From NCBI GenBank assembly GCA_030390025.1, contig CM059432.1, positions 56,732,001 through 56,796,000 on the forward strand: a DNA stretch of 64,000 nt, read 5' to 3'. The notes beneath the pieces are model-generated. The model was not told where the DNA came from and did no database searches. It saw nothing but the letters and a program-made list of their open reading frames with translations. The number at the start of each line of letters is the position of its first letter. Within the stretch, counting starts at the first letter, position 1. The translations under genes were made by a program, and so were the position numbers. This document shows, one piece after another, positions 2,396 through 28,274 of the stretch. This stretch comes from Squalus acanthias. Taxonomy: Eukaryota.

Positions 2396-2404
2396 ATATC
2401 CTTT
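2396..2404 (+). promoter_or_regulatory. U12-type 5' splice site (ATATCCTTT)
   Basis: Exact minor-intron donor consensus, located where TRAPPC9 similarity ends (phase 0). Confidence 0.92.
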
Positions 2405-2739
2405 CTCAGTGCCCAAAATGAATAGTAATGCATCAACACAAATGCATTTGTTTCTCTAAGTAATGCAACTACACAGGCTGTGTATTGTTTATATAGAGCT
2501 GTGTTAGAAATTTTAAATAATTGAGAGTGAACTAAATTTGAGCTGTGGTTGGTCAAATATGCCCTCTTATTAGTTCTTGCAGTAACCAATCAGATCTAAG
2601 ATGCAGGAGCTGTTCCCTGCCATCTTGATCTCTGGCATGGCATTCTTCTCCACTCCCAGCAGTCTTTTTTATATTCTAAGATTCTCCTGGAAAACAGGAA
2701 AAACTCCAAATTCCTCTTCTCCAACACAAGCTGTTTCAC

Positions 2740-3705
2740 TTACCTCCATCCATGCGTTTCTGGTATCATCCTTGCAAATCTTCTCTGCACCCTCTCCAGT
2801 GCCTCTATATCCTTTTTATAATATGGTGACCAGAATTGTACGCAGTACTCCAAGTGTGGTCTAACCAAGGTTCGATACAAGTTTAGCATAATTTCATTAC
2901 TTTTCAATTCTATCCCTCTAGAAATTAACCCCAGTGCTTTGTTTGCTTTTTATGGCCTTATTAACCTGTGTCGCTACTTTTAGTGATCCATGTATCTGTA
3001 CCCACAGATTGCTCTGTTCCTCTACCCCATTTAGACACTTTTCCAAGGAGTATGTAGCCTCCTTATTCTTCCTACCAAAATGTACCACTGCACAGTTACC
3101 TATATTGAAGTTAATTTGCCAATTTGCCCATTCTGCAAGTTTATTAATGTCTTCCTGTATTTTGTCACAGTCCTCCACTGTATAACTGCACCCACCAATT
3201 TGGTGTCATCTGCAAATTTTGAAATTCTACTTCTGATTCTTGAGTTCAAATTGTTTATGTAAATGGTGAACAACAGTGGTTCCAGCACCAATCCTTGTGG
3301 GACACCGCTTCCCACCATTTGCCAATCTGAGTAACTTCCGTTAACCCCTACTCTCTGTTTTCTGTTTCGTAGCCAGCTTGCTATCCATTCTGCTACTTAT
3401 CCCCTGACTCCACATGTTCTGACCTTTGTCATGGGTCTACTATGTACCTTATCAAAGGCTTTTTGGAAATCCAGATATATTACATCTACTGCATTACCTT
3501 TATCTACCATTACTGTTATTTCTTCAAAGAATTCAATAAGGTTGGCCAAGCCTGATCTTCCCTTTTGGAATCTTTGCTGACTGCTCTTGATTGTATTTTC
3601 AGTTTCTAGATTTTTTTCTATGACATCTTCCATTATCTTTCCTACCACTGACGTTAAGTTAATTGGTCTATAGTTTCCTGGATTTGTTCTATCTCCCATT
3701 TTAAA
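2740..3705 (-). mobile_element. CR1 LINE RT fragment with internal deletions
   Basis: Minus-strand ORFs with [25 protein letters not shown] and FADDTKL. Confidence 0.9.
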
Positions 3706-4617
3706 TTACATAGGCTATGCAGCACTAAAACAAGCCATTCGGTCCAACCAGGCCATGCTGACGTTTCTGCTCCACTCGAACCTACTCCCGTTTTTCCTCA
3801 TCTAACTCAATCAGCATAACCCTCTATTCCCTTCTCCCTCATATGCTTGTCTAGCCTCCCCTTACATACATCAATACTATTCGCTTCAACCACTCTCTGT
3901 GGCAGCGAGTTCCACATTCCCACCACACTCTGGGTAAAGAAGTTTCTTCTGAATTCCCTATTTAATTTCTTGGTGACTATCTTATATTGATGGCCTCTAG
4001 TTTTGCCCTTCCCCACAAGTGGAAACACTCTTTCTATATCTAGTCTATCAAAACCTTTCATAAATTTAAAGACCTCTATTAGGTCACCCCTCAGTCTTCT
4101 CTTTTCAAGAGAAAAGAGACCCAGCCTGTTCATCCTTTCCTGATATGTATACCCTTGCATTTCTGGTATCATCCGTGTAAATATTCTCTGCACCCTCTCC
4201 AATGCCTCTATATCCTTTTTATAATATGGTGACCAGAATTGTACGCAGTACTCCCAAGTGTGGTCTAACCAAGGTTCAATACAAGTTTAGCATAATTTCA
4301 TTACTTTTCAATTCTATTCCTCTAGAAATAAACCCTAGTGCTTGGTTTGCTTTTTTTATGGCCTTGTTAACCTGTGTCGCTACTTTTAGTGATTTGTGTA
4401 TTTGTACTCCTAGATCCCTTTGCTCCTATACCCCATCCAGACTTGCACCCGCCAAGTAATATGTGACCTCCCTATTCTTCCTACCAAAATGTAATACCTC
4501 ATATTTATCTGTGTTGAACTTCATTTGCCAATTTTATGCCCATTCTGCAAGTTTATTCATGTCTTCCTGTAATTTGTTGCAGTCCTCCTCAGTATTTACT
4601 ATACCCCCCCCAATTTG
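3706..4617 (-). mobile_element. 5'-truncated CR1 LINE including 3' end
   Basis: ORF 3807-4202 (ERVQRIFTRMIP...RRNFFTQSVVGMWNSLP). Same subfamily as the copy at 2740-3705. Confidence 0.9.
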
Positions 4618-7145
4618 GAGAGAATATTAATCAAGAAATAGTAGGAGCTTGCAACAAAGGTAATGCAATAACCGTGGGGGACTTTAATCTTCATATAGAC
4701 TGGACAAATCAAATTGGCTAAGGTAGTCTGGAGGACGAGTTCATGGAATGCATTCGGGACAGTTTCCTAGAACAATACGTCATGGAACCAAACAGGGAAC
4801 AGGCTATTTTAGATCTTGTATTGTGTAATGAGACAGGGTTCATTAGCAATTTCATAGTAAAGGATCCTCTGGAGCAGTGTGATCCTAATATGATAGAATT
4901 TCACTTAAGTTTGAGAGTGACTTGCCTAAGTCCGAAACTAGAGTCTTAAACTTAAATAAAGCCAATTACATAGGTATGAGGGGCGAGTTGGCTAAGGTAG
5001 ATTGGAAAAATAGATTAAAAGGTATGGCGGTAGTTAAGCAGTGGCTAGCATTTAAAGAAATATTTCATAATTCTCAACAAAAATACATTCCATTGATAAA
5101 CAAAAACTCCACGGGAACAGTGATCCAACCGTGGCTAACTAAAGAAGTTAAAGATAGCATCAGATTGAAAGAAGTTTATAATGTTGTGAAGAATAATAGT
5201 AAGTCTGAGGATTAGGAGAGTTTCAGAAACCAACAAAGGATGACCAAAAAATTTATTAAAGGAAAAAATAGAATATGAGAGAAAACTAGCGAGAAATATA
5301 AAAGCAGATTGTAAGAGCTTCTACAAGTATGTAAAAAGGAAAAGAGTAGCAAAAGTAAACGTTGGTCTCTTGGAGGCTGAGACAGGAGAAGTTATTATGG
5401 GGAATAAGGAAATGTCAGAAACATTAAACACATATTTTGTATCTGTCTTCACAGTAGAAGACACAAAAAGCATACCAAAAATGGTGGGGAACCAAGGGTC
5501 TAATGTGGGTGAGGAACTTAACGTAATTAATATAAGTAGAGAAAAAGTACTAGAGAAACTAATGGGACTAAAAGCCGACAAATCCCCTGGACCTGACGGC
5601 CTACATCCTAGGGTTCTAAATAAGGTGGCTGAAGAGATAGTGGATGCATTGGTTTTGATCTTTCAAAATTCCCTAGATTTTAGAACGGTCCCAGCGGATT
5701 GGAAGGTCGCAAATGTAACACCGCTATTCAAGAAAGGAGGGAGAGAAAAAACAGAACTACAGGCCAGTTAGCCTGACATCAGTCGTCGGGAAAATGCTGG
5801 AACCCGTTGTTAAGGAAGTGGTATCAGGGCACTTAGAAAATCATAACATTATTAGGCAGAGTCAACATGGTTTTATGAAAGGGAAATAGTGTTTGACAAA
5901 TTTATTAGAGTTTTTTGAGGATGTAACGAGCAGGGTAGATAAAGGGGAACCAGTGAATGTAGTATATTTGGATTTCCAAAAGGCATTCGATAAGGTGCCA
6001 CATTAAAGGTTATTACACAAGATTAGGGCTCATGGGGTTGGCGATAATATAGTAGCGTGGATAAGAGGATTGGTTAACGGACAGAAAACAGAGAGTCGGG
6101 ATGAACGGATCTTTTTCAGGTTGTCGGACTGTAACTAGTGGGTGCCGCAAGGATCAGTGTTGGGGCCTCAGCTATTTATAATCTATATTAATGACCTAGA
6201 TGAAGGGACCGAGTGTAATGTATCCAAGTTTGCTGAAGATACAAAGCTAGGGGGGAACAGTAACCTGTGAGGAGAACACAAAGAGTCTGCAAAGGGATAT
6301 AGATAGACTCAGTGAATGGGCAGTAAGGTGGCAGATGGAGTATAATGTAGGGAAATTGAGGTTATTCACGTTGGTAGGAATAATAGAAAAACAGAATATT
6401 TTTTAAATGGTGCGAAACTTTCAAATGTTGGTGTTCAGAGAGATTTGGATGTCCTCGTGCAAGAAACACAGAAAGCTAGCATGCAGGTACAGCAAGCAAT
6501 AAGGAAGGCAAATGGCATGTTGGCCTTTATTGCAAGGGGGTTGGAGTATAAGAGTAAGGAAGTCTTGCTACAATTGTACAGGGCCTTGGTGAGACCACAC
6601 CTGGAGTACTGTGCAGAGTTTTGGTCTCCTTATCTAAGGAAGGATATACTTGCCTTGGAGGCGGTGCAACAAAGGTTCACTAGATTGATACCTGGGATGA
6701 GAGGGCTGTTCTATGATGAGAGATTGTGTAGAATGGGCCTATACTCTCTGGAGTTTAGAAGAATGAGAGGTGATCTCATTGAAACATACAAGATTCTGAA
6801 GGGGATTGACAGGGTAGATGCTGAGAGGTTGTTTCCCCTGGCTGGAGTGTCTAGAACTAAGGGGCATAGTCTCAGAATAAGGGATAGGCCATTTAAGACT
6901 GAGATGAGGAGGTCTTCACTCAGAGGGTTGTGAATCTTTAGAATTCTCTGCCCCAGAGGGCTGTGAATGCTGAGTCTTTGAGGCTGAGATAGATAGATTT
7001 TTGGACTCTAGGGGAATTAAGGGATATGGAGATCGGGCGGGAAAGTGGAGTTGAGGTCGATGATCAGCCATGATCTTATTGAATGGCGGAGCAGGCTCGA
7101 GGGGCCGTTTGGCCTACTCCTGTTCCTATTTCTTATGTTCTTATG
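4618..7145 (+). mobile_element. CR1 LINE, degraded ORF2 (EN C-terminus + RT) and 3' UTR
   Basis: GDFN, ILDLVL, KSPGPDG, LVRPHLEYC motifs across frameshifted ORFs. Ends in ttcttatgttcttatg octamer repeats. Confidence 0.95.
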
Positions 7146-7370
7146 AAATGAAAGAACATGTTGGGGATAAATGCTACAGCATTTTCACAGGTATTACAAA
7201 AATCTATTAACACTGACATTTCAATGGGTTAGCTATCCTATTTATTGTAATGGCAACCATGGTTCTATTTGTAGCTTTTGATCAAAGTGATTATGATTAA
7301 CTGTAAAAAAAAAAACTACTTACCATCACAAATGGCATCTGTGAAAGAAAGTACAGTAGTTATGCCCCGT

Positions 7371-9636
7371 TAGTGAATGCATTTGTTGTCATTTTCCAAA
7401 ATTCCATAGATTCTAGAACGGTTCCCGCGGATTGGAAGGTAGCAAATGTAACCCAACTATTTAAGAAAGGATGGAGATAAAAATGGGAAACTTACAGACC
7501 AGTTATCCTGACATCAGTAGTAGGGAAAATGCTGGAATCTATTATTAAGGACGTGGTAACAGGGCACTTAGAAAATAATAATAGGATTGGGCCGAGTCAA
7601 CACTGATTTATGAAAGGGAAATCATATTTGACAAATCTGTTGGAGTTTTTTTGGGTTTTAACTAGCAGAATAGATGAGGGGGAACCAGTGGATGTGGTGT
7701 ATTTGGATTTTCAGAAGGCATTCGATAAGGTGCCACGCAAAAGATTATTAAACAAAATTAGGGCTCATGGGATTGGGGGTAATATATTAGCATGGATTGA
7801 GGATTGGTTAACGGACAGAAAACAGAGTAGGAATAAACGGGTCATTTTCGGGTTGGCAGGCTGTAACTAGTCGGGTACCGCAAGGATTCTCCGCTATTCA
7901 CAATCTACATCAATGATTTGGATGAGGGGACCAAATGTAATATATCCAAGTTTGCTGATGATACAAAGCTGGGTGGGAATGTAAGTTGTGAGGAGGATGC
8001 CAGGAGGCTTCAAGGGGATATAGACAGGCTAAGTGAGTGTGCAAAAGCATGGCAAATGGAATATAATGTGGAGAAACGTGAAGTTATCCACTTTGGTAGG
8101 AAAAATAGAAAAGCAGAGTATTTTTTAAATGGTGAGAGATTGGGAAATGTTGGTGTTCAGAGGGACCTGGGTGTCCTTGTACACGAACCACTGAAAGTTA
8201 ACATGCAGGTACAGCCAGCAATTAGGAAAGCAAATGGTATGTTGGCCTTTATTACAAGAAGATTTGAGTATAAGAGTAAAGACGTCTTACTGCAATTATA
8301 TAGGGCACTGGTGAGACCACAGCTGGAGTATTGTGTATAGTTTTGGTCTCCTTACCAAAGGAAGGATATACTTGCCATAGAGGGAGTGCAACAAAGGTGT
8401 TCACCAGACTGGTTCCTGGGATGGGGGGATTGTCCTATGAGGAGCGATTGAGTTGACTCGGCCTATATTCTCTAGAGTTTAGAAGAATGAGAGGTGATCT
8501 CATTGAAACATATAGGCCCAAAAATTCGGCCGTTCTCGGGTGAGTACTCAGTGCGTACTCACCCGTATTCATTCCCGAAGTGCCGGTTTCCTGCATGCAC
8601 GGGAAACCGGCACTTCCGGTATGGCGAAGGAGGCGGTTCCTAGGTGAACCGCGTGCGCACTAGAGGCTGCGCGCACGCAGCACACTTAGGTTTTTTTTCA
8701 GGTTTCAACGCGAGGGTAAGTATGGAAGATTCTACGCAAGTAAAAAGGAGGCGTAAGACCCCTTTTGAACAAGGTAAGTAGTTAATTAAGTATAATTTTA
8801 AAATTTTTTCAACAGGTTTATCTTTTTTAGAGACTTTAAAGAAAGGTAAGTTTATTTTTATAACTTTTAAAAAGTAGTTTAATTTTTTCAAATATTAAAA
8901 TTTTTGTTTAAAGTGGTTAATTTATTTAACTATAGTTATTTTATTAACGTGATTTTTTTTAAAAATTTATTTGAGGTTTAGCTGTTCTTTTGGGGCCGAT
9001 TTAGATTCACAGATTTGACAGGTCTCCTGTCAAATCTATGAATGAAAGATGGTCTGCTGCCATTGGCTCTCCATGGCCCACGTGATCCCAGGGGTCGCAT
9101 CGCACTAACTGCGCCCCTGGAACACGCAAGCACTGCGCGCCGGCTCTTGGGAGAGGCCCAGGACCCGAAGTTCTTGTGGGCCCAAAACACAACGGCCGGC
9201 ACGGTGGGTGATATCGCGCGCGATCCTTACCCCCGCGGCAAGCCTCCGAATCGAATTTCTAGGCCATAAAATTCTTACAGGGCTTGACAGGGTAGATGCA
9301 GGGAGGATGCTTCCCCTGGCTGGGGAGTCTAGAACCAGGGGTCACAGTCTCAGAATATGGGGTTGGCCATTTAGGACTGAGATGAGGAGACATTTCTTCA
9401 CTCAGAGGGTGATGAATCTTTGGAATTCTCTACCCCAGAGGGCTGTGGAGGCTCAGTCGTTGAGTATATTCATGACAGAGATCGATAGATTTTTGAATAT
9501 TAAGGGAATCAAGCAATATGGGGATAGTTCAGGAAAGTGGAGTTGAGGTAGAAGATCAGCCATGATCTTATTGAATGGTGGAGCAGGCTCGAAGGGCCAA
9601 ATGGCCTACTCCTGCTCCTATTTCTTATATTCTTAC
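7371..9636 (+). mobile_element. 5'-truncated CR1 LINE interrupted by a MITE at 8515-9265
   Basis: RT motifs in ORFs at 7610 and 7918. The CR1 sequence gaaacat-ata-aaattctt resumes exactly after the insertion. Confidence 0.92.
8515..9265. mobile_element. Non-autonomous DNA transposon (PIF/Harbinger-like MITE), 751 bp
   Basis: TIRs ggcccaaaaattcg / cgaatttctaggcc. The 3-bp TSD ATA is defined by the interrupted CR1. Contains internal hairpins. Confidence 0.85.
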
Positions 9637-10569
9637 ATGGTCCAGACTGATTTAACTTGTGTAACTGGAACTGCTTTTTTCCTACCCTGTATTAGCAAAA
9701 TTGTTGCTTAACTACAAGAAATGTCACCATAGTTAAATCCATTTTGTTTTGGGCAAGTTATTAAACTTAAAATAATATTCCTGAAGGTCTCATTAATCTT
9801 GTATGCCTTCCTTCATAATTTGGCACATCCTGTAAAATAAAATTTAATTTAACTTTAATAATTTATATTAACTGTCAGTTCAAAAGGGAAAGGTCACAAA
9901 TACAATTTTTTGTGAGCCTTTTGCGAAGTAATCCTATGAGATTTTACTGAACATCACTAATGGCAGCTCAAGAATTATAAAGTGGTTACATTTTTCTTCT
10001 ATTTGATAACACCTGTTGTGCAGTATTTTAGCAGTACAATTATTTTTTTGCTGCCCAGTAATTTCAAACAGTTCAACTCTGCTGGTTATTTTCACATTAG
10101 AGATGTGCAAAATAATTTTGAAAAATGCCCTGAGAGTTGTAGGTAAAAATAGGAAAGGAATTGGAGTCTCATTGCATCTAATTGTCCAATAGGCAGACCT
10201 GACATCATTCGTTTCCAACATTGGTGCAGGTATACTTATAGTCAAGATATATGTCACAATCAGCAGGGCAGTGGTTGGGCAGTCTGTATCACATCAATGT
10301 AAAGGCAGTAATTATAATACCTGGTGTAGATTTTGTTAGTAGCTGACACCTTTTTTTTGTTTTCTGGCAACATTTGTGCTGTTAAAAATTCATGCGATAT
10401 TCAGCACATAGAAACTCCATGTTGATTATTGTTTTTGTTAGGTGCTAAAGTATATTTATTTTGTTCTATTAACTGTTTTTATATTTATACAGTTGCTAAT
10501 TTGCATAGTTTAATGAGCTGTGAGAATTGCAACTACTGTACTTTCGTATGCAATAACCCTCAGAACTAA

Positions 10570-12042: not shown

Positions 12043-12402
12043 TTTTTTTTATTCGTTCTGGGATGTGGGCGTCGTTGTCGAGGCCAACAATTATTGCGCA
12101 TCCCTAATTGCTCTTGAGAAGGTGGTGGTAAGCCACCTTCTTGAAACTGCTGCAGTCCATGTGGTGAAGGTACTTCCACAGTGCTGTTAGGGAGGAAGTT
12201 CCAGGATATTTGACCCAGCGACGATGAAGGAATGGCGACATATTTCCAAGTCAGGATGGTGTGTGACTTGGAGGGGAACTTGGAGGTGATGGTGTTCCCA
12301 TGCGCCTGCTGACCTTGTCCTCCTAGGTGGCAGAGGTCACGGGTTTGGGAGGTGCTATCAAAGAAGCCTTGGCAAGTTGTTGCATTGCATCTTTTAAATG
12401 GT
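12043..12402 (-). mobile_element. 3' end of a non-CR1 LINE (RTE-X-like, classification uncertain)
   Basis: Closely similar to 51030-51390; 3' tail shared with the SINE at 594. Confidence 0.75.
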
Positions 12403-12458
12403 GCTGAAGTATTTTATGCTGACTTCAAGGCTTCTGCACAAACCAGTTGCTTCCAGAC

Positions 12459-13593
12459 ATGGGTGCACTAGTAGGCCTTCCTCTTGGAATGGACCACGAC
12501 TGGGAGAATGAGCAGAGGCCACGCAGAGCAGGGCAAGCTGCTAGAAGAGGGAGGAGGTGGAGGAGGAGACAGACTCTCAGCAGGAGGCCATATCCACCCA
12601 GGGTGTTCAAGGAGTAATTCTCTTTCCTGAACCTCAGCGACAACCAATGTTTGAGACGTCTGCGCTTCACTAAGGAGATCGTCACTGAAATCTGCCAGCT
12701 GCTGCAACCACAACTGCAACCTCGGAGCAGGGCAAGGACCGCATTGCCAGTGGCTGTGAAGGTGACCGTGGCTATGAATTTTATGCGTCTGGCTCCTTCC
12801 AGGCTGCTGCTGGAGATATTAGCAATATCTCACAGTTTGCAGTGCACTGTTGCATAAGGGAGGTCACTGAGGCTCTCTATGCAATGAGAGATAACTTCAT
12901 TTAATTCCCTCTTGCGGAAGTAAAGCAGGCGGAGCGAGCAAAGGGGTTTGCAAGGATTGCAGGCTTCCCCATGGTGCAGGTTGCCATTAACTGCATGCAC
13001 ATTGCTTTGCGTGTGCCTCATGTCAACTCTGCCATGTACCGGAACCGAAAGAGATTCCACTCCCTCAACGTGCAGCTGGTGTATGATCATAGGCAGCGCA
13101 TCATGTAGGTTAATGCCCGGTATCTTGGCAGCAGTTATGATGCCTTCATTCTGCACCAGTCAGCTGTGCCAGCTGTATTTCAGCCACCATGGCAAACTGA
13201 AGGGTGGCGACTGGGCGACAAGGGCAATCCGCTGATAACAGGGCTCATGACTCCGGTGCGCAACCCACGCACACGTGTGCAGAATGCATACAATGAGAGC
13301 CATACTCGCACAAGAAATCTGATACAGCAGGCCATTGGCGTTCTAAAGCAATGATTCCACTGCCTAGACTGCTCCAGAAGAGCCCTGCAGTACCCAGCTG
13401 AGCGGGTGTCAAGATTTGTTGTGGTATGCTGCACAACCTTGCCGTCAGGAGGGAACAACCCTGGTCATTGTCACCACCTATCAGCAAGAGGAGGAAAAGT
13501 AGGAGGCAGAAGAGGAACGGGGGGCTGCAACCTAGACCGCCGTTTTCTGCCTGTGCTGTACGTAAAGAACTAATTCAAGTGCGATACCAGTAA
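12459..13593 (+). pseudogene. Harbinger DDE transposase (HARBI1-like), with stops and frameshifts
   Basis: RRLRFTKEIVTEICQLL; AGFPMVQVAINCMHIA; YRNRKRFHSLNVQLVYD; GSSYDAFIL; LGDKGNP; YNESHTRTRNLIQQAIGVLK. Confidence 0.88.
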
Positions 13594-14485
13594 CCTCAAC
13601 CCCAATTGCCCATTCATCAACAGTCCCACACTCCTTATCTTCCCTCTGTTACTGACCATCACATCGCCCTCTTGGCCACAATGCAAAAATAAAAGCCAAC
13701 ACAAAATACACAGTTCAAACCAAATTTATGAATTAAATCATGTCATATTGCATGCAAAATTTAACTAATCACACTTGTGCATCTCTTTAGTGCCTGTCTT
13801 CCGTGTGCATTTGCCTGACCTAGTGCTCCTACGAAGTGCTATCCCAATGGCTGCAGCATGGTTGGTGAAAGGCTGCTGACTTTCAGTGAAGGAGACTACA
13901 GATGGCCTTCGAGGACGACCTTGAGCAGCTCTGGGCCTTCACACTGCACCATCTCGGCATGGGCGGCAGCAGTCTGAGCTGGCTGGCTGACAGGCAACAG
14001 CAAGGAGAGTGGCAGGGGTGCGAGCACAAATGCTGTCTTCGAGAGAGGACAGCAGGTTCGTGTTCCTTGGAGCCACTGCCACTCCACCGATGCGGTGCCT
14101 CAGCAATCCTAGTAATTTGTTGGAGGACAGATTGCTGGACTGCTGTGACACCCTGGAAGCTGCTTTGAACACTGGTATCCAGAGCCATGATGGCAGCAGT
14201 CTGAGCTTCCACTGCAGCACTCAGACGTTGGGTGGCTTCTGCTTGTGCTGCAATGGAAGCTGAGACATCGGTTTTTGAATGCTGCATCATGGTTGGTTCT
14301 ACAAGGGCATTGATGGAGTTGGCCACCTGTTCCAAGCTCTGCGCAAAGCCCTGTTCCAAGTTGGTGTCATACTCCTCCATGCTCCCTGACACTGCACACC
14401 AAGCAGTTTGCTGTATGCACCCATCAGTCTTTTTCTGTTGCCTGGCCCATCGAAGTCCTCATCTGAGTCCTCTGCAGCAGAACTA

Positions 14486-14880
14486 AGAACATAAGAAGTA
14501 GGAGCAGGCGTATGCCATATGGCCCTTTGAGCCTGCTTCGCCATTCAATAAGATCATGGCTGATCTTTGACCTCAACTCCACTTTCTTGTCCGATCCCCA
14601 TATCTCTTGATTCCCCTAAAGTCCAAAAATCTGTCTATCTCAGCCTTGAATATACTCAACGACTCAGCATATACAGCTCTTTGGGACAGAGAATTCCAAA
14701 GATTCACAACCCTCAGTGAAGAAATTCCTCCTCATCTCCGTCTTAAATGGCCAACCCCTTATCCTGAGACTATGCGTCCTAGTTCTAGATTCTTCAGCCA
14801 GGGGAAACAACCTCTCAGCATCTACCCTGTTAATCCCCCTCAGAATCTTATGTTTCAATGAGATCACCTCTCATTCTTCT
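14486..14880 (-). mobile_element. CR1 3' fragment inserted in the Harbinger element
   Basis: ORF 14664-14867 (ESRTRTHSLRIRGWPFKTEMRRNFF); TSD gaacta. Confidence 0.9.
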
Positions 14881-14964
14881 GAACTATGCGCAGTGTCAGT
14901 ATCTGAGCTGGTGGCTGTGAGTGTGAAATCAAGTGGCAGTGTGTCTTCATCTTCACTGTCTTCA

Positions 14965-16530
14965 CTAATGAGAGGGAGGAACTGAAAGAAATCAGTATTT
15001 GTAGGAAAATAGTGTTAGGGAAATTGACAGGATTGAAGGCCGATAAATCCCCAGGGCCTGATAATCTACATCCTAGGGTACTTAAGGAAGTGGCCCTAGA
15101 AATAGTAGATGTTACCCCACTATTCAAAAAAGGTGGTAGAGAGAAAACGGGGAATTATAGACCAGTAAGCCTGACATCGGTAGTGGGGAAAATGCTAGAG
15201 TCCATTATAAAAGATGTAATAGCAGAGCACTTGGAAAACAGTGACAGGATCGGACAAAGTCAACATGGATTTACAAAAGGTAAATTGTGCTTGACTAATC
15301 TACTGGAATTTTTTGAGGATGTAACTGGTAAAATAGATAAGGGAGAACCAGTGGATGTGGTGTATTTGGACTTTCAGAAGGCTTTTGATAAGGTCCCGCA
15401 TAAGAGATTAGCGTGCAAAGTTAAAGCACATGGGATTGGGGGTAAGGTACTGTCTTGGATAGAGAACTGGTTGGCAGACAGAAAGCAGAGTTGGAATAAA
15501 TGGGTCTTTTTCTGAGTGGCAGGCAGTGACTAGTGGGGTACCGCAGGGACCGGTCCTAGGGCCCCAGCTATTCACAATATATATTAATGATCGAGACGAG
15601 GGAATTGGATGTAATATCTCCAAGTTTGCAGACGACACAAAGCTGGGTGGGAGTGTGTGCCGTGAGGAGGATGCCGAAAAACTCCAGTATGATTTGGACA
15701 GGTTGGGTGATTGGGCAGAAGCATGGCAGATGCAATATAATGTGAATAAATGCGAGGTTATCCACTTTGGTGTCAAAAACAGGAAGGCAGATTATTATCT
15801 GAATGGCAATAGATTGGGAGAAGGGGAAGTGCAACGAGACCTGGGTGTCCTTGTGCGCCAGTCGCTGAAGGTAAGCATGCAGGTGCAGCAGGTGGTTAAG
15901 AAGGCAAATGGTATGTTGGCCTTCGTAGCGAAAGGGTTCGAGTACAGGAACAAGGATGTCTTGCTGCAGTTGTACAGGGCCTTGGTGAGACCACACCTTG
16001 AGTATTGTGTGCAGTTTTGGTCGCCTTATCTGAGGAAGGATGTTCTTGCCATGGAGGGAGTGCAGCGAAGATTCACCAGGCTGATACCTGGGATGGCAGG
16101 AATGACGTATGAAGAGAGATTGGGTCGATTGGGCTTATACTTGCTGGAGTTTAGAAGAATGAGAGGGGATCTCATTGAAACTTATAAAATTCTAACAGGA
16201 CTAGACAGACTAGATGCAGGAAGGATGTTCCCGATGGCTGGGGAGTCCAGAACCAGGGGTCACAGTCTAAGGATAAGGGGTAATCCATTTAGGACTGAGA
16301 TGAGGAGGAATTTCTTCACCCAGAGAGTGGTGAACCTGTGGAATTCTCTACCACAGAAGGCAGTAGAGGCCAATTCATTAAATATATTCAAGAAGGAGTT
16401 AGATATATTTCTTAAAGCTAAAGGGATCAAGGGATATGGGGAGAAGGCAGGGACAGGGTACTGAATTTGGATGATTAGCCATGATCTCATTGAATGGCCT
16501 GCTCCTGCTCCTATCTTCTATGTTTCTATG
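14965..16530 (+). mobile_element. 5'-truncated CR1 inserted in the Harbinger element
   Basis: RT ORFs 15012-15515 and 15526-16464; ttctatg tail; tgtcttc repeated at the junctions. Confidence 0.95.
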
Positions 16531-17182
16531 TCTTCTTGGTCTTCCACCACTGCCTGGGCAGTTTATAGTTCTTGGTTATCTAAAAGGAAAAAAGGGACAA
16601 GGGTAGAGTTGTGGTGAGGGGAGAGGAGAAAGTAAGAAGTGCATGCTTACACCATCTGTAGCTTGTAAGTCAGAAGAGATTGTGGGCTGAGGGAGAAGTG
16701 GGATGAGAGGAGGCGGATTAGGTATGAGGATGCTGTCAGTGAGTGTTGTGCAATCTGTTTGGGTGATGTGGCTGTCATGGTTGAATAGCTGGCAGTGTGT
16801 GCAAGATGTGGGTGTGAGGCTTGCAACAGTGCTAAGTGTGTGAGGGTGAGTTGAAGCATATGAATGTTAGGTATGAGTCCTGATTGATAGAATTTGTTGG
16901 TAGGTAAATGATGGGGGTGTGGTGAATTGTGCAGTGACTGAGGCTAGTGGTGCAGTTGGTAGGATATGGCATTTGAAGATGCATTCACTGACTTTTGACC
17001 ACCCATATGAAGTCATTAAACTTCTTGTAGCAGTGCATCCAGGTCCTTGGGGCTAAACTCCTGGCATTGACCTCTGCGGCTACCTGTTCCTACTGCCTTC
17101 TCATCGTGTGTCTGGAGGGCCTCCTGCTCCCCTGCGGGTACAGGACATCTCTCCTCCTTTCCACCTCCTTCACCAAGACCTC

Positions 17183-17990
17183 ACACGGAGAACTGTGAAG
17201 TAATGCATGTGGGGAGGGCTAACCAGGAAAGGGAATACACATTAAATGGTAGGACACTGAGTAGTGTAGAGGAACAAAGGGACCTTGGAGTGCATGTCCA
17301 CAGATCCCTGAAGGTAGCAGGCTAGGTAGATAAGGTGGTTAAGAAGGCATATGGAATGCTTGCCTTTATTAGCCGTGGCTTAGAATACAAGAGCAGGGGG
17401 GTTATGCTTCAACTGTATAAAACACTAGTTGGGCCTCAGCTAGAGTACTGCGTGCAGTTCTGGTCACCACATTACAGGAAAGATGTGATTGCCCTAGAGA
17501 GGGTACAGAGGAGATTTACAAGGATGTTGCCGGGAGTAGAGAATCTTAGCTATGAGGAAAGATTGGATAGGCTCGGTTTGTTTTCCTTGGAACAGAGGAG
17601 GCTGAGGGGAGACCTGATTGAGGTGTATAAAATTAAGAGGGCCCTCGATAACGTGGATAGAAAGGACCTATTTCCCTTAACAGAGGGGTCAAAAACCAGG
17701 GGGCACAGATTTAAAGTAATTGGTGGAAGGTTTAGAGGGGATTTGAGGGGAAATTTCTTCACCCAGAGGGTTGTGGGGGTCTGGAACTCACTGCCTGAAA
17801 GGGTGGTAGAGGCAGAAACCCTAACCACATTTAAAAAGTACTTGGATGTGCACTTGGGATTCTGTAACCTGCAGGGCTACGGACCAAGAGCTGGGAAGTG
17901 GGATTAGGCTGGATAGCTCTTTGTTGACCGGCACGGACAAGCTGGGCCGAAATGGCCTCCTTCTGTGCTGTAAGTTTCTATGATTCTGTG
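17183..17990 (+). mobile_element. CR1 3' fragment (distinct subfamily) inserted in the Myb-like exon
   Basis: ORF 17335-17907; TSD gacctc. Confidence 0.92.
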
Positions 17991-18574
17991 ACCTCCAGTG
18001 CAGCGCCTAAATACCTTGGTGTATGCTCTCTCCCATGGTCAGCCATTTTTTAATGTTGCACAGCTCTATTCCCAATGACCTCAACACCTCCAGCAGCCAC
18101 AATGCACCTTCCCTTTGAGAGGTGCAGGCTAGCTTTAAGCAGTGCAGATTAGCTTTAAATATTGCCAGCAAGTAACGATATTGGGCCCCTTGCTGATTCG
18201 TGCAGTTAATAAACAGCGCGGTTAGCACTAGCTGCATACAGAAATCATTATAATGAGCAGGCAGCACGAAGTTGGCGTGCTACCTGCATTACACTGAACG
18301 GGCGCGGAGTAAACGCGCATTGTGATCCCCGCGCACGTTTTCGGGGGCCGTCCAATTTATGTCAGCTCGCAAAATCACTCCCCTGTTACTAGTCAAGAAT
18401 ACATTCTTCCACTTCCTTCTCTCAGAATCTGCCTTTGGTGGAAGTGTTTTCTTTTAAGTATCGTAGCATAAAAGAAGACATTTAACTAAGCGACATTATT
18501 CATGGCAAGATTCCGATTGTGGTACTAAGTTAAAGTGAAATTCATATTATATTTGACAAAAGTAAACAGAGTAT

Positions 18575-19845
18575 TTTGTTGAATGACATCCTATGTTACT
18601 GTGACCATGGTAAACTATCCCTCCTTGTCCTTCTCAACCTATCTGCAGCCTTTGACACGGTTGATCACACCATCCTCCTCCAACGCCTCTCCACTGTCGT
18701 CCAGCTGGGTGGGACTGCACTCGCCTGGTTCTATTCTTATCTATCCAGTTGTAGCCAGAGAATCACCTGCAATGGCTTCTCTTCCCGCTCCTGCACCGTT
18801 ACCTCTGATGTCCCCCAAGGATCTTTCCTTGGCCCCCTCCTATTTCTCATCTGCAGGCTGCCCCTCGACGACATCATCCGAAAACACAGCGTCAGGTTCC
18901 ACATGTACACAGACAACACCCAGCTCTACCTCACTACCTCTTCTCTTGACCCCTCTATGGTCTCTAAATTGTCAGACTGCATGTCTGACATCCAGTACTG
19001 GATGAGCAGAAATTTCTTCCAACTAAATATTGGTTAGACTGAAGCCATTGTTTTCAGTCCCCGCCACAAACTCCACTCCCTAGCCACTGACTCCATCCCT
19101 CTCCCTGGCAACTGTCTGAGGCTCAACCAGACTGTTCGCAACCTTGCTGTCGTATTTGACCCCGAGATGAGCTTCCGACCACATATCCGCACTGTCACTA
19201 AGACCGCCTATTTCCACCTCTGTAATATCGCCTGACTCCGCCCCGGCTCAGCTCATCCACTGCTGAAACCTCATCCATGTCTTTATTACCTCTAGACATG
19301 ACTATTCCAATGCACTCCTGGCCAGCTTCCCATCTTCCTCCTTCCATAAACTTAACGTCTTCCAAAACTCTGCTGCCCGAATCCTAACTCAAGTCCTGTT
19401 CACCCATCACCCCTGTGCTCTCTGACTTGCATTGGCTCCCGGTTAAGCAACGCTTCGATTTTAAAATTCTCATCCTTGTTTTGAAATCCCTCCTTGGCCT
19501 CGCACCTCCCTATCTCTGGAATCTCATCCAGCCCTACAACTCTCCAAGATATCTGCACTCCTCCAATTCTGGCCTCTTGTGCATCCTCGATTTTAATTGC
19601 GCCACCATTGGTGGCTGTGCATTCAGCTGCCTAGGCCCTAAGCTCTGGAATTCCCTACCTAAACCTCTCTGTCTCTCCACCTCTCTTTCCCCCTTTAAGA
19701 CACTCTTTGAAACCCACCTCTTTGACCAAGCTTTTGGTCATTTGCCCTAATATCTTCTTTTGTGGCTCGGTGTCAAATTTTGTTTGATAACCCTCCTGTG
19801 AAGCGCCTCGTTAAAAGATGTTATATAAATGCAAGTTGTTGTTGA
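18575..19845 (+). mobile_element. L2-type LINE, 5'-truncated
   Basis: SLLVLLNLSAAFDTVDHTILL, VPQGSFLGPLLF and LHWLPVKQRFDFKIL motifs; tail tatataaatgcaagttgttgttg. Confidence 0.9.
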
Positions 19846-19859
19846 AGTCTACCTGTTCC

Positions 19860-20100
19860 GGAAATGCCAGGAACACCCAACTAGTCAGTCAACATCTGTG
19901 GAGAGAACAGGCAAGTTAATATTTTAGGCGTGGAGCCTTTAGGATAAACATTTCAGGTGTGCACCTTTCATGATGAAGAGTCCACACCAGAAAACATTAA
20001 ATTGTCTGTTCAATCCACAGGTGCTGACTGACCTGCTGGGTGTTTCCAGCATTTTCTGGGTTTTTTTCCCTTCTGTTTCCTGTATCTGCAGTTTTTCTTT
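19860..20100. mobile_element. Degenerate inverted-repeat remnant of Penelope-like terminal sequence
   Basis: Arms resemble the PLE 3' ends at 45890-46010 in both orientations. Similar remnants at ~1160-1270, ~31140-31240 and ~32770-32965. Confidence 0.6.
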
Positions 20101-21083
20101 TTGTCCATCAATTACAGGTGCTTCATTAACAGAATGACACCATAGCAGTCCTGTATAGTAAGCTCTATTGTATTTTGATTACTTCATGGGAATAGCTCAC
20201 TTTGTATAAATGCTATATAAATGCAAGTTTTTCTTTGTAGCATTAAATCTATTTTGTTGAATGCATACGACTGTAATTCAGTATCACATGTTAAAATATG
20301 TGAGCTATTCATGGACCTTGATTATAATATTTAATCTGTTTCAGTTCAGTAACCTGCAGAACTATGTTGGCGTTCAAAGAAGAGCTTAACAATGGTTTTC
20401 CCTGTTTCATTCATTGATGGAAAGTTCAAAAAATAGATTACGTTTTTTTTTGTTAACTTCCTTGCTAATAGCTAGTGTGATAAAGTAGTTCTGTTGCCAG
20501 AATTTCACCCATGCATGTTATAAGGATATTATTTTTAATGCGCATTCTCTGGAGATATGGAATGAAGGGAGAAGTGTAATCCTCTGTTCATTAGATCTTT
20601 GACTAAGTTAAAGGAAATAAATACTAGTGCATGATCTAGCACTTTACAACATTATTGAAACATCTCAAAGCCCGTCATATACAGTATGTTTACATTTTGA
20701 CATGTAATAACTATATAAGATCATGAGTGAGTCATAAAGATGTTCCCCAAGGACAGTAAACTAAGTAGTCTCTTTTTCCTAACTCTCTTTTCTACTTAGT
20801 CAACCTATAACCCTGCCAAAATATTACGGTTTTATTATTTTTTTATTCATCTGAACTGTAGGACATGGAGGATACTGTTACAATCTTGTGAAATCAAATG
20901 AAGCGCCAATCCCATCCACACTGAGCTCAGTATGTTACTGGCACATGCAGTGAAGGTGAGGAAGTAGCATTAGAATCAGATTTCAGTTATGCAGTTGTGA
21001 CTTCCACATTTAAAGAAAACAAAATGCCTGAGCATTTAATTGGGTTGATAGGAAAGAGCTGGAATCTTTATAGCACTGAATTG

Positions 21084-21346
21084 TTAGAGGGGATTTGAGG
21101 GGAGATTTCTTCACCCAGAGGGTGGTTGGGGTCTGGAACTCACTGCCTGAAAGGGTGGTAGAGGAAGAAACCCTCACCACATTAAAAAGTGCTTGGATGT
21201 GCACTTGAAGTGCCGTAACCTACAGGGCTATGGACCAAGAGCTGGAAAGTGGGATTAGGCTGGATAGCTCTTTGTCAGCAGGCGCGGACACAATGGGCCA
21301 AAATGGCCTCCTTCCGTGCTGTAAATTTCTATGATTCTATGATTCT
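21084..21346 (+). mobile_element. CR1 3' end
   Basis: Matches 17730-17990; ends in attctatg repeats. Confidence 0.9.
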
Positions 21347-21626
21347 AATTGCTAAATGGAAACTAGGGTAGAGAAGGTGGAATGGGATCTCGTGAGTATA
21401 GAGCATTGTAATAGCAAAGAGAGTGCGGTGGCACTAAATGCAAACGACATCAATAAATGGCAATGAAGGTGACGCAGAGCCAAACTGCAGTAAGATATTT
21501 GAAAGTTGATTTATAAACCATCAAAGACCCTTGGATTATATTTAACCTTATACATTAATCTTATCAACATACCCAGCTTTGTAAAGCTATACTTGTATTT
21601 GTTGTTTTTAACTGGAAATGCTAAGC

Positions 21627-21920
21627 CAGGGGTGTCCAATCTGTGGACCCTAAGCATTGGCAATCTGGCCCTCAAAGACCAGGGAATCTTTGGGTGACTT
21701 TTTTAGATTTTCTGGTTTGTCCTGTTTGAATTGTATGGGTCTGAAGCTTTGGAAAAGGCTGTTGCTTCATTAATGGATAAATCAGCACAAAATCTATTAA
21801 TGTCATTAACTTGAGAGATTTGTAAATTAGTGAGAACTTGGATTTAAACTTGGTTGTGGCCCCCTCAGACTCCATGATACACACGTGTGTGGTGCACAGA
21901 AAAAACTTGGACACCCCCTT
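21627..21920. mobile_element. hAT-type MITE
   Basis: TIRs caggggtgtccaa / ttggacaccccctt; imperfect 8-bp TSD tgctaagc / tgctcggc. Confidence 0.7.
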
Positions 21921-22564
21921 TGCTCGGCAATTCTAGCTGACTGGGGCTGAGATAGGGGCAGAGCTGGGGCGATTGTGTGCAGTGAAGGTCGAATGATACT
22001 AATACTTTTGATGTTTAGAATATCTTTAATAATAAGGATTTATCCAATAGGTCTTTATCTAAATGTGTTGCTTAAAGAAATTTGCTTTGTGCCATTTTTC
22101 TCTTATGGCTAAAGATCAAGGTCCTGTGCAACTGATACTTCTGCTAACTAAGTATTGCAGTGAAGATATGGGTTGGTTTAATTCATTCTCCATATACAAT
22201 AAGATTGAGAGAACCTGTTGCATTGGACTGAAATGAATATATGGACAATTTTTGGCCTTCCCATCGCATTTCTCTCATCATTTGTAGCAACTTTATTACT
22301 GTTCTCCTCAGAAATTTCGAGGTCTATTTGTGGAACTTCTTGGTGGTTCTGTGTTTGATGTATTTTTCTGGAATGTTTTGTCTGCCTGGTATCTTTTTTT
22401 GTTGTCTCTCATTTCAGCACTGCGTTCCATTGAAAGTTCTTTATTTTCTTTATAAAATCCTTTATTATGAGGTCTTTATCAATTGACAGCCTTGAGAATG
22501 CTGAACTCAAGTATCCTCACCTTGAACCAACAACTTCTGCCACTTCAAACCTTTAAAAAAAAAT

Positions 22565-22950
22565 TATCACAGGATCTGGACAACACTGGGAAAGCCACAT
22601 TTATTGCCCATCCTTAGCTGCCCTGAAAAGCTGGTAGGCCTTCTCCTTTAACTGCCGCACTCCTTGTGGTGCGTAGTGATTGTTTTACAACTGGCCACTT
22701 CAGAGAGCACTAAGCGTCAACTACATATTGAATGATTGGAGTCCAGTATAGGCCAGTCCAGATAAGGGTAGTGGATTCCTTCCCTGAATGAACCAGTTGG
22801 GCTTTTTTGACAATCAGGCAGCTTTTATGATCAGTTTCCTTAGGGTTAACCCATAAATTACCAGATTTATTGAATTCAATTTCACAACTTGCCATAATGG
22901 AATTTGAACTCATGACTTGTGGGTTACTAGTCCAGTGCCATAACCTATGT
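22565..22950 (-). mobile_element. Diverged copy of the SINE family at 594-1015
   Basis: Reverse-complement similarity: catttattgcccatcc, aaccagttgggc, atttgaactcatg...tactagtccagt. Confidence 0.75.
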
Positions 22951-23582
22951 TGATTGTTAACAATGCCATGTAAGCCCAGTTTATTGAGTCCCTTATCTTG
23001 GTTTTATCAACTGCTAGCAAAAGCAGAGTCTCTTCAAACATAGCCTTGTGCACCATCGACCATAGAGAATTAAACTGCTAGCTTGGACCCATTTAATTCA
23101 TCAGTCAAAGAAGTAAAACCTGGGTGGAGTACACTTTGAGCCCTGATTTTTCTTACAGTATGCAGACCTTTTTCAGTGAATTTAATGCTCAGGTTAGCTC
23201 TCATCTTCGATATCCAACCCTACAAACTGCAAACTGATGATATCCTAGACCTTTTCTCCATGGATTTCTCAGAATCTCCCCTTGTGTAGTTTCACAAATT
23301 TGGGGACGGAGGCCTTATGATTTCTCTTTAGCTCTATCCATGATAGGCCAGCACTACAAAGTCCTTCATAATATGAAAATCTTGATACTTTGCCTGCCGG
23401 CTGTTATTTCTCCTTGCAATAAAATCTGGTAAATAACTTATTCAACGTAGGAGCCCCGTGCTCCTTAGTAAGGATTCCAGAGTTCTGGGACAGATGGACA
23501 TATGCATGTCCTAGACAGATAGAAACTCTAACTATATGATTTTTTTCTGTAGCTCAGTTTAGAGACTCTTAAGCAAGGGAAT

Positions 23583-24408
23583 GGTTCAGAAATTGCTGGA
23601 ATGGCACATCTCGCAGCGAGCATCATGAACTGGACTTTTTACCTCGCCCTTCAGATCGCACTATATTTGCGTCGCAACTTGCTGGAAATGTGAATTAATA
23701 ATGGCGCAGCAATCTCAACGTCGCATCTGGGACTTAATGAAGGTTGTGCCCAATGGTTTATCTCCTTAACCAAGGAAACAAAAGGATAGAGAAAGAAATA
23801 CAGTGAAAGGCGGAGAAGGAAATAGGGTAAATAGGGCAGAGAGGGAAAGAAAGAGAGTGGATTAAGAGAGAGAAAAAAAATGTTAGAAAGGAGAAGTAAG
23901 AACATAATGGCTGTAGACTGTACCACCTCGGCACAGGCGGCAGCATTCTGGGCTGGCTGGCTGACAGGTAGCAGCAAGGGCTCTGGCAGACTTGCGAATA
24001 CGAATGCTGTCATCCGGAGAGAGAGAAGGCCTCTTGCCCCCCCTGCGGGTAGAGGTTCTGACATCTTCTGTGCACCCCCAGGACCAAGGCCTCCAGTGCC
24101 GCATCTGAGAACCTCCTTGCCCTCTCTCTTCTCTGTTGAGCCATGACTTCAGAGTGGCAATGAGGTGCTTCTGCAACAAAGCACCTCCTCTTCACATGGT
24201 GCAGAGGGCCTAGGCCAAACTTTATTGGCCAGTAGACTTCACCCGATATTGGCCGCCCCTGTTGAGCGCTAAGCTAACCAGCTGAGATCAGTGTTCCAAT
24301 CATTATAATGAGCAGGCAGCATGAATTTTGCGTGCTGCCTGCACCACTTTGAACAGGCAGATCACACTCACCACGCCCGTTGTGGAGCTTCATCCAATTT
24401 TACCCCCC
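23583..24408. mobile_element. Harbinger deletion/chimeric derivative
   Basis: Right part matches 13945-14040, the Myb exon (MAQQRRERARRFSDAALEALV on -) and 18245-18360. Left part resembles the MITE at 31642. Confidence 0.75.
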
Positions 24409-24739
24409 CTCGATCTTTACTGCATGTTAATATAAACATGCAGTTTTTAAATACCTCTTCACTTACAAATTTATGGGTAGATTCAAAACTGGTAATCAGC
24501 ATACATAGAATTTACCATCCCATGGACTTTGATGTGAACTGCAAATTGTAACTGGCCAGGCTCCTCTTCCCCACCCCAAACTTACATATAGTATACGCTA
24601 TTTCTTTTTCTCTTATACCCCAGGAATTAATGATGAACTGACTAAATTTCTACACACAATTTTTCTGAGTGCCTACTTGGCATGACCATTTTGGAACGTG
24701 TAGTTGGGTTGTACAGTGGATTGGAGTGTCGTATTCACA

Positions 24740-25960
24740 AGATCCTAAGATAATTATGGTTGAGGAAGGACATTTTTCCAACTTTAATTCATCCATCCAG
24801 CACATCCTAATCTCTTTCTCCACCCCCCATCCCTTTGTAGCATACAGTTGTTTCTTAAATGATTCCATGGTTTTTGCCTCCATAACTCTATCTGAATGTC
24901 TATTTCATATGTTGATCACTCTTTGTATGACGAACTTTCTGGTGTAAGTCCTAAAATTACTTTTTACTGGTTTGGACCTGTCCCTCCTCATTCTACTTCC
25001 ATGGTTTAATTTAAAGAATTATTCTGGATTAACCTTCTCTGTATCTTAAAACTCTTAAATACCTCTAAGATACTCTATAGTCTAAATACTCTGATTATAA
25101 TCGCTCAACGATTGGTGGCCGTGCCTTCTGTTGCCTAGGCCCTAAGCTCTGGAATTCCCTGCTTAAACCTCTCTACCTCTCTTTCCTCCTTTAAGACGCT
25201 CCTTAAAACCTACCTCTTTGACCAAGCTTTTGGTCATCTGCCCTAATTTCTCCTTATGTGACTTTGTGTCAAATTTTTTGTCTTATAATACTCCTATGAA
25301 GTGCCTTGGGATGTTTTTCTACGTTAAAGGCGCTATATAAATACAAGTTGTTGTTACTCTTGGACACAAAGTTTCTCCAATCTTTCCTTGTAGTGCAAAC
25401 CCCTGAAACTAGGAATTAGCCTTGTAGCTCTTCTCTGTACAGCCTCCAACCCTTGAATGTCTCTCTCGTTTCTTGGTGACCAGAACTTAATTCACTATTT
25501 AGTTGTGGCCTAATCAGAGTGCTATATAGTTTGATTACTATCTACTCTGACTTATATTCTGCTTTTTTTACTACATAGCTCAAGTTTCCATTGGCTCCTA
25601 GGTTTCTTTTTCTGTCACCCTCCGCTATTTCAACACCATTCATTGAGTAATCCTGTCATCTATTTTTGTTTTCCAATGTGTCGCACTTTATGTTCGTCTG
25701 CATTAAAATTAATCAGCCATTGTTCTTCCCACTTAAAGATCCTGTCCAACTCATGCTGTAATTTCTGAGCTGCCTCTTCCAATTCCACTACCCCTCCTAG
25801 TTTCGTCTCATCTTCAAATTTGTGCAATTTGCATTGAGCTTCTAAATCCAGGTCATTTATATAAATTAGAAACGGTAGTGGCCCCAGTTTCATTCTGACA
25901 TAACTAACTTGTTGTTTCTTGCCCTTCAACCAGTTTCTTATCCATTTATGTTCATAATTT
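24740..25960 (-). mobile_element. Old degraded CR1 with a nested + strand L2 3' end (25098-25355)
   Basis: ORF 25660-26085 has LGPLPFLIYINDLD...KFEDETKLGG. The L2 tail matches 19590-19845. Confidence 0.75.
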
Positions 25961-28164
25961 GCCTTGTGGTGAGTTTCCAGTGTTAATTGTTGCAAGCCAC
26001 CGAACAGAAGCCAGTAAATAGGGAGGTAAATAAAATAGGACAACCAGTTAACCCATGCCTCTGTTGTGCACCTCTTTGTAAACATCTATAAAATTATATT
26101 GACTGAGGTCCCTAAGCTGCATTCTGCTGTGTTGTTCAGCTTCCTGAGATAACAATGCAGGAATGATCAAATATACAAGCACATGTAATGAGAATCAACC
26201 AAGTGGCAGAGCACCTGAAAATTATTTTCACAACATTATTTAAATTTGATTGCATTCTTTAACATATAACTATTGATGATTGTAACAATCAATGTGTTTT
26301 ATTCCGTGTGATGAAAGAATGTAAGGACTTCTGTAGTCTTTTTATGAGTTTGTCCCCTTGTCTGTGGTCTGCATGATATACACGTCAAAATCATTTTCAA
26401 GTTGGTCATTTAATAACATTCCTTTTTATATTTTTTGTTCTACCATATTTCTGTTGGCAAATTCTGAACTGACTGTTGAGACTAGTTTTGTGAAATACCT
26501 GAAGCACTTTTGTTCGGCTCAAAACTGTGAGTAGCGAATAACCTAGTGCCTTGTGGCATAGTGAGAACACATTAAGTGGTAGTCAGCAAAAACCTTTAAT
26601 TATTAACTGTTATTGAACAACAGGTAAGTACAAAAATAGTAGCTAGTGTCTCCTTAACGAGTAATTATATTATCAAAATGCAAAAAAAAAGCCCTTCAGC
26701 ATTTAACAGTGTGCAACTGTTAGTGTACTAGAAATGACTGCTTTCAGATACCTGTAGTTAACATGATTGCTTTCCAGATGACAAGTAATTGTATGGAAAA
26801 TTCCCTAAAGCAACATTAGCCATAAATAAATGTTCTGCCTCTGGAGGCCACGGTTAAGCTGTTGATGGTGTGCAGTAACTGCTCAAATCCAGAGATAAAT
26901 GTGATGTTATCGGCCATGATCTATCAAACATCCGGTAATCTAAATTGAAGTGCTGCTCTGAGGCAATTAACTGATCACCTGCAATTACCTCATCTATTCA
27001 TAGTTTAATATCTTCTTCTGGTAGTTGCTAATAAGTAAACCCAATTAAATCAGCACTGCAGCATTATGATTGCAAAGGAATTACTGTACTTAAATGCACA
27101 AATATGAGTTCAGTGATAATTAGTTCTAATATAACACTGGTAGATCATGTATTAGTTAAGAAACCCATTGGTTACTGTCAGCGTAGCTATTCTCATTGGT
27201 AATGTTACAAATATGTTAAAACTTAATATAGGAAGATTTGAGTTTTATTTAGGATGAAGGCATTTTGCATCAGTTAAAATTGTAGGTTTAGGGCAGGTTA
27301 GATGACTAATTTCATTTTTACATTATCAGGCTAATACAGTGTTAGTCTGGCACAAGTTGTCGAGGGTGAAAAAAAGTCATGTCACCAAGATAGCTATTGT
27401 ATAAGTAGAATGCACACTGAGGGTAATAACCCACTTGTGTTATGGGCAATATGAGATATAGTTTTGCAATGGCTAAACCTAATCTCTTAGCAGAAACCCT
27501 TACCTGCTTAATCAGCTCCACTTTAACATATATGCACCAGAGATAATAAATCCAAATTAATTTGTTACACTTTCATTTTAGAATTGCATGGACATTTTTT
27601 TATTTATTGTGGACTGTGGTTTAAAAAAAATCAAATTAATATATTTTGGAATAAAGTTGTTTAGTGCATGCAAAGCATTCTTCTTCCCATGTTTACCACT
27701 TTTTCTTCCCCTTTAATGTTCTCCATATGGTACAAGGGAACAAGGAGATCTTGAACCTCTTCTCCTTTGCCAGCATTGCATTGCAACTGACTTGAAGATA
27801 TATGTGATAATTTGTGTGGCTCTCCCTCTGTCCCATACTGTGACAAATGTACCTTCCCATGTGGCATATTTAAACTTAGAAATTCACTCTACAGGAATCA
27901 TAGGTGCAAAGCCAGGTCCTATTACTATGATGTGCATTGTATTGATACACCAACATGCCACTGGGCCAGTTGCAGACCTAAACAGGCAAAGTATTTTGTA
28001 ACTAATGGATTTCATTTGATAGAGTAATCCTTTTTAAGAATTGGTTAATGAAACAGAAATTGGAAGAAAAGCAATACTGCAACATCAAAGACAACTCTGT
28101 TAAGCCTACAAACACTGCAGTGGCAAATTTAAAAACATCTAACATTTTATTCCAAAAGTTTGCA

Positions 28165-28183
28165 TTTCCTTAACTTTTTGTAC
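28165..28183 (+). promoter_or_regulatory. U12 branch site TTTCCTTAAC and TAC 3' splice site
   Basis: Consensus branch sequence ends 9 nt before the exon; AC at 28182-28183. Confidence 0.92.
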
Positions 28184-28274
28184 CCATCTCTTAATCGTGA
28201 AGGAGAAGCAAGTGTGGAAGGAGTTCTCAATCAACTGGTGCAGGAACATTTACAGCTAGCTCCTCTGCAGTGGG
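28184..28274 (+). CDS. TRAPPC9: TRAPPC9 internal coding exon, 91 bp
   Basis: [30 protein letters not shown](D) versus recalled human [31 protein letters not shown]; followed by canonical donor gtgagt. Confidence 0.93.

Follow-up and report, generated by a model that had tools for sequence, protein, structure and literature searches.

A long AT-AC intron with full U12-type splice signals in a shark TRAPPC9 gene

Does a long AT-AC intron filled with transposon remains act as a control point of TRAPPC9, or is it an ordinary minor intron of considerable length? The question arises in a 64,000-nt stretch of a shark genome (G000:C8:56732001-56796000, in the following the window), for which a first-pass annotation had described a TRAPPC9 intron of the AT-AC, U12-type class, packed with transposons and conceivably rate-limiting or linked to nonsense-mediated decay (NMD). 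The identification as such was right. With high confidence, the element is an AT-AC intron of TRAPPC9 that is spliced and carries full U12-type signals; it is likely removed by the minor spliceosome, is very likely the ancient intron already catalogued in human, and would be spliced constitutively. The features that define the intron are the following (window positions).

2236..2395, + strand: 160-nt coding exon of TRAPPC9 on the 5' side of the minor intron; present in 4/4 RNA-like contigs; likely counterpart of human exon 20.
2396..28183, + strand: 25,788-nt AT-AC U12-type intron in phase 0, the sole U12-type intron among the 21 coding introns of the gene; based on contigs, protein-guided cut and motifs.
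2396..2404, + strand: U12-type 5' splice site ATATCCTTT; based on the U6atac duplex and a 12-mer context equal to the human entry.
2423..2425, + strand: TAG, which on read-through is the first stop in frame and follows nine intronic codons; based on the reading frame.
28166..28174, + strand: U12-type branch site TTCCTTAAC, in which 28173 is the likely branch A; based on the U12 duplex.
28184..28274, + strand: 91-nt coding exon of TRAPPC9 on the 3' side of the minor intron, probably equivalent to human exon 21; the GT-AG intron after it measures 387,336 nt.

Both exons belong to a complete, colinear TRAPPC9 (Trs120) gene. The best match of the upstream exon peptide is P0003, a named cartilaginous-fish TRAPPC9 (98% identity), which maps colinearly to 21 exons over about 920 kb of contig C8. 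The exon pair corresponds to residues 939-992 and 993-1022 of this protein, and no residue is lost in between, which bears out that the joined frame reproduces the TRAPPC9 peptide. Each exon has a single match in the 3.7-Gb genome. A tblastn search of the intron for a hidden exon, carried out with six homologues, returned nothing at meaningful E-values beyond the two exons already known. In the PDB the full TRAPPC9 homologue matched yeast Trs120 only, and the 53-aa upstream exon peptide had no match; Pfam holds no family for either exon peptide, and no RNA family of Rfam was found within the window. One further exon, a 27-nt microexon at G000:C8:56267008-56267034 (L031), adds to the 21 and occurs in some of the shark isoform models but not in others (P0005 versus P0004).

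The boundaries described by the first-pass annotation are found in the sequence: TGG AAG ATC closes the upstream exon at 2395 and ATATCCTTTC starts the intron at 2396, while at the other end AC occupies 28182-28183 directly before CCA TCT. U12-type introns of the AT-AC subtype are characterized by the 5' splice site RTATCCTTT and the branch site TTCCTTRAY, the latter situated about 10-20 nt before the 3' end. In the shark intron the 5' splice site, the branch site with its spacing (the likely branch A lies 10 nt ahead of the last intron base) and AT-AC ends in transcript-like contigs are all present. Among the GT-AG, GC-AG and AT-AC options, AT-AC is the sole cut compatible with the protein. 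By comparison, script-based cutting of 20 junctions yielded GT-AG with an ordinary major donor at 19 of them, and AT-AC as sole solution is confined to the minor-intron junction; shifted AT-AC cuts, which are also possible at four of the 19 GT-AG junctions, were rejected for lack of U12 motifs. In 636 kb of control DNA the 8-mer ATATCCTT occurs at only about 3.9 per 100,000 positions per strand. Because the motif is so rare, chance does not account for its presence at the exact exon end defined by the protein together with a branch site at the opposite end.

Splicing was assessed with assembled contigs from 8 of 24 listed sequencing runs, six of them RNA-like and two DNA-like, the RNA status being the guess of the tool. 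In four of four RNA-like runs from four organisms and four studies (X1, X5, X9, X11) the contigs cover only 2234-2395 and continue with the sequence from 28184 on. In the contigs of X13 and X15, the two remaining RNA-like runs, the covered part is 28183-28274, with the upstream exon ahead of it and the exon from 387 kb downstream behind it. Thus, the joint 2395^28184, proposed as a check by the first-pass annotation, is found in all six RNA-like runs (five studies), whereas the DNA-like contigs (X19, X23) continue through the acceptor into the intron. Since the contigs cross three introns, they very likely represent spliced transcripts; with a single genomic match per exon, no processed copy that could account for them was found. 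Neither a GT-AG junction nor an intervening exon, each of which would have spoken against the annotation, was seen in the contigs, from which rare forms are dropped. With assembled contigs only and none of the 24 runs on record as RNA, the lack of contig cover at 2396-2700 is uninformative on intron retention or decoy use.

These data bear directly on the alternative that the intron is a U2-type AT-AC intron, or that the real junction uses a GT-AG pair close by or takes in an extra exon, which must be considered extremely improbable. U2-type AT-AC introns, with G at position +5, do exist (PMC2831892), and an elephant-shark gene model is 17 residues short, as a GT-AG pair would yield. However, the shark donor has C at +5, and thus lacks the U2-type AT-AC feature, while both U12 motifs, donor and branch, are complete. 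The contigs show the direct joint, for which the sole one-base slide leads to CA-TA ends, and the full peptide is retained in 121 of 122 homologues. An isoleucine likewise precedes the junction in 121 of the 122, a set composed of the best-scoring 120 of 560 plus earlier matches, in which broken models are thereby under-counted.

The one deviating model, the public elephant-shark TRAPPC9 (P0011), lacks the 17 residues across the AT-AC junction and ends in an aberrant C-terminus; it is likely a gene-model error, and the gap may stem from a forced GT-AG call. The suggestion that such introns are often mis-annotated thus has one case in its favour at this junction, whereas the 121 other models keep the full peptide. 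Besides serving as a warning to gene finders, the junction adds little beyond annotation in this respect.

The small nuclear RNA genes for U11, U12 and U6atac are present in the genome with matches above the Rfam cut-off. Using the genome's own U6atac, the predicted duplex with the donor reaches -9.6 kcal/mol, compared to -4.6 or weaker for all 19 other donors tested. The branch site forms a predicted duplex of -9.5 kcal/mol with the genome's own U12, with one bulged base. Two internal branch look-alikes, at 23763 and 26651, were rejected owing to weaker pairing (-6.7). The former (23763-23779, TCCTTAAC) is followed by AC about 8 nt on and could form a decoy 3' splice site. From these splice signals, in combination with established knowledge on U12-type introns, dependence on the minor spliceosome is likely. 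According to the predicted pairings, U11 and subsequently U6atac would bind the donor ATATCCTTT, U12 would pair with TTCCTTAAC leaving A28173 bulged, and the exons would be joined at the AC 10 nt further on. U6atac has at least eight matches in the genome (C26, C28 and C19), four of which lie within about 1 Mb on C26 (6292551-7301056); U11 and U12 have at least one each.

That TRAPPC9 contains a minor intron is already known and is not a new finding. A human catalogue (PMC6717393) lists it at chr8:139885970-139910146, with a length of 24,177 nt, the donor ATCATATCCTTT and the branch sequence TTTTCCTTGACC. The two introns share the gene, 12 identical nucleotides of donor context (ATC|ATATCCTTT), a U12 branch site and near-equal length, and the position fits intron 20 of 22. 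They differ in the branch site, which is TTCCTTGAC in human versus TTCCTTAAC in shark, and the shark intron is 1.6 kb longer and carries CR1 and other repeats of its own genome. In human, exon 21 extends to c.3349 and ends in phase 1 (PMC6396715). This agrees with the second exon of the window in phase as well as in distance to the C-terminus. In a human isoform of 1,246 residues, 130 residues follow the end of exon 21, compared to 134 in the shark homologue and 132 in a marsupial. Donor context and the end of the next exon therefore make it very likely that both are the same ancient intron.

Trappc9 (Nibp) has also been noted for its U12 intron, whose ends are CT-AC in mouse and rat and canonical elsewhere among vertebrates (Lin et al. 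2010, PMC2831892); the text portion considered gives no intron position, and its one supplement holds no Trappc9 row. In contrast to the rodents, the shark intron retains the canonical AT start. The present finding thus extends the catalogued minor intron to a shark, in which AT-AC was kept. A literature search pairing TRAPPC9 with the minor spliceosome gave no match. Within the U12-type AT-AC class, which accounts for about 26% of human minor introns (PMC10639083), the shark intron fits in ends, donor, branch site and spacing; it stands out by its length, with 10 of 188 human rows being longer, and by phase 0, which is less common (about 22% on average).

The length is therefore unusual for the minor class, yet it is ordinary for this gene and near that of the human counterpart. 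In the human table of PMC6717393, the ten minor introns exceeding 25,788 nt were counted by eye among 188 of 770 rows. In the shark gene the intron ranks sixth among 21 coding introns (median 17,352 nt), after those of 387,336, 137,284, 69,417, 64,399 and 33,352 nt, and contributes 2.8% of the intron length of the coding region. The largest of these, which runs from window position 28275 to G000:C8:57147610 and is joined across by RNA-like contigs, accounts for 42%. Repeat cover, defined as blastn cover by 40 random 10-kb genome stretches and hence a lower bound, amounts to 65% in the minor intron (65% again with a larger library), compared to 66% in the major intron upstream and to 54%, 58%, 57% and 53% in four additional samples from TRAPPC9 introns.

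The intron is indeed packed with transposons, repeats covering at least 65% of it, although the load is uneven, with 83-85% over the first 17 kb and 26% over the last 8.6 kb. All elements inside are broken; among the 70 of 103 intronic stop-free frames of at least 65 aa that were scanned against Pfam, plus a few more, the recognizable pieces are RVT_1 and DDE_Tnp_4. They comprise remains of long interspersed elements (LINEs), whose second open reading frame (ORF2) served as query, and of a DNA transposon.

2754..4653, - strand: two broken CR1 LINE copies in antisense orientation, which are 85% alike along 467 nt; based on tblastn with the window's CR1 ORF2, RVT_1 and self-comparison.
4611..9641, + strand: broken sense CR1 LINE fragments; based on tblastn with CR1 ORF2 and Pfam.
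12419..14544, strand not assigned: decayed DNA-transposon-like repeat of approximate extent, presumably PIF/Harbinger-like; DDE_Tnp_4 pieces at 12905-13351 on the + strand.
14588..17992, strand not assigned: cluster of broken CR1 fragments, mostly sense; the intron's longest stop-free frame (333 aa) lies here.
18534..19851, + strand: broken LINE with an RVT_1 match, which we assume to be L2-like; based on Pfam and repeat comparison.
25888..28183, + strand: intron 3' end without repeat matches; aligned lengthwise by DNA-like contigs from two related organisms.

In the whale shark, CR1 expansion drives intron growth, and more than 88% of genes carry intronic CR1 (10.1101/443036). Those introns are long and rich in CR1-like LINEs, as is the TRAPPC9 intron; minor introns and CR1-borne U12 donor look-alikes are not treated in the portion of that study considered. 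The minor intron's length would reflect neutral accumulation of CR1 and other repeats, as in all introns of the 920-kb gene.

Against this background, the suggestion that size and transposon load turn the intron into a rate-limiting or NMD-linked control point did not find support: the human intron is of similar size, five introns of the same gene are longer, and the neighbouring intron has equal repeat cover. Such a dedicated control point, in which length and repeats hinder minor splicing and retained transcripts are directed to NMD by the stop at 2423-2425, thereby limiting TRAPPC9 output, is very unlikely. Minor introns are indeed retained about 2-fold above their neighbours on average and can limit expression (PMC4615840), and with 25.8 kb the intron lies in the long tail of its class. 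[quoted passage not shown]

The stop itself is equally ordinary. Read-through does yield IISFLSAQNE followed by TAG, as the first-pass annotation had stated, but all 20 introns tested reach a stop within 79 codons, at a median of 5.5 versus 9 here, and 11 of the 19 other introns do so as early or earlier. Moreover, unspliced U12 transcripts are cleared by the nuclear exosome, and splicing times are given as 10 min for minor versus 5 min for major introns (figures of Singh and Padgett 2009, in PMC4615840). Since about 400 kb of gene follow the intron, slow splicing alone is probably not limiting for output. We favour constitutive splicing, which would take place while the remaining 400 kb are transcribed, with the generic inefficiency of minor introns and no dedicated switch. 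A failing fraction, generic to the class, may occur.

Several points weigh against this interpretation. [quoted passage not shown] The repeat cover of the intron exceeds that of random genome stretches (43%, standard deviation 21, n=40, leave-one-out), and CR1 ORF2 covers 34% of it versus 22% in 200 kb of the gene's other introns. The predicted U11 duplex of the donor (-6.2) does not fully separate it from two major donors (-7.4 and -6.0). Finally, the human exon boundary derives from donor context and numbering, not from an alignment on human DNA.

A second way in which transposons could interfere with splicing is provided by two further perfect copies of the donor motif. Among 3,480 AT or GT positions scanned in the intron, full matches to ATATCCTTT occur only at 2396, 2807 and 4210, the latter two 411 and 1,814 nt inside the intron.

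2807..2815, + strand: U12 donor look-alike ATATCCTTT, antisense of CR1 ORF2 'KDI' codons; use not seen in contigs.
4210..4218, + strand: second U12 donor look-alike ATATCCTTT of the same antisense CR1 'KDI' origin; use not seen in contigs.

That these decoys compete meaningfully, extending the exon beyond the stop at 2423-2425 and thus acting as a transposon-made, regulated poison donor through NMD, appears highly improbable. Both match at nine of nine positions, and their predicted U11 duplex (-7.0) even exceeds that of the true donor (-6.2), whereas that with U6atac is weaker (-7.9 versus -9.6). Two decoys compare to 0.34 expected (P of two or more, 0.047); however, the copies lie in related CR1s and are not independent, so that this P is overstated. 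The motif is rather a by-product of CR1 codons, the same ORF2 motif underlying 17 of the 52 listed control sites, as judged by reading of the translations (including L024, L030 and L042; three with the full 9-mer). Every junction-crossing contig uses 2396, which is probably chosen over the decoys by exon definition across the 160-nt exon.

In random stretches, the 8-mer ATATCCTT occurs at about 1.8 times the shuffled rate (3.1 versus 1.7 per 100 kb), whereas the 9-mer is not raised (1.0 versus 0.85). A strand depletion of donor look-alikes within the gene was considered and rejected, as the bias of the 8-mer is not significant (11 of 31 sense, p 0.15). Recursive U12 splicing was rejected as well, since AC precedes neither internal donor look-alike. 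Were the decoys used, a transposon-made poison U12 donor, spelled by the antisense of a conserved CR1 coding motif, would tune TRAPPC9 via NMD, and CR1 would supply decoys for the minor spliceosome throughout the genome in sharks, which we regard as very doubtful. Transposon-borne U12 decoys were not encountered in the literature among the matches listed, judged by title and start of abstract, which is weak evidence. With two perfect donors in its interior, a minor intron of this length offers a natural test of donor choice by the minor spliceosome over 25 kb.

The 91-nt exon lies in a repeat-poor zone (19600-40000), in which cover drops to 26-29% compared to 64-85% on both sides, and which may hold conserved non-coding sequence. 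Within it, 25900-29500 is aligned along its length by DNA-like contigs from two relatives. Further downstream in the window, a relatively young CR1 copy at 46488-48944 (+ strand) retains an 818-aa stop-free ORF2 frame with an endonuclease part and RVT_1. At 61275-62195 (- strand) a CR1 ORF1-like frame with a match to GDSL esterases (Lipase_GDSL_2, E 3e-07) is located upstream of endonuclease and reverse transcriptase pieces on the same strand. Between them, 49416-50595 is occupied by a G+C-rich tandem array of about 52-62 copies of a 19-nt unit.

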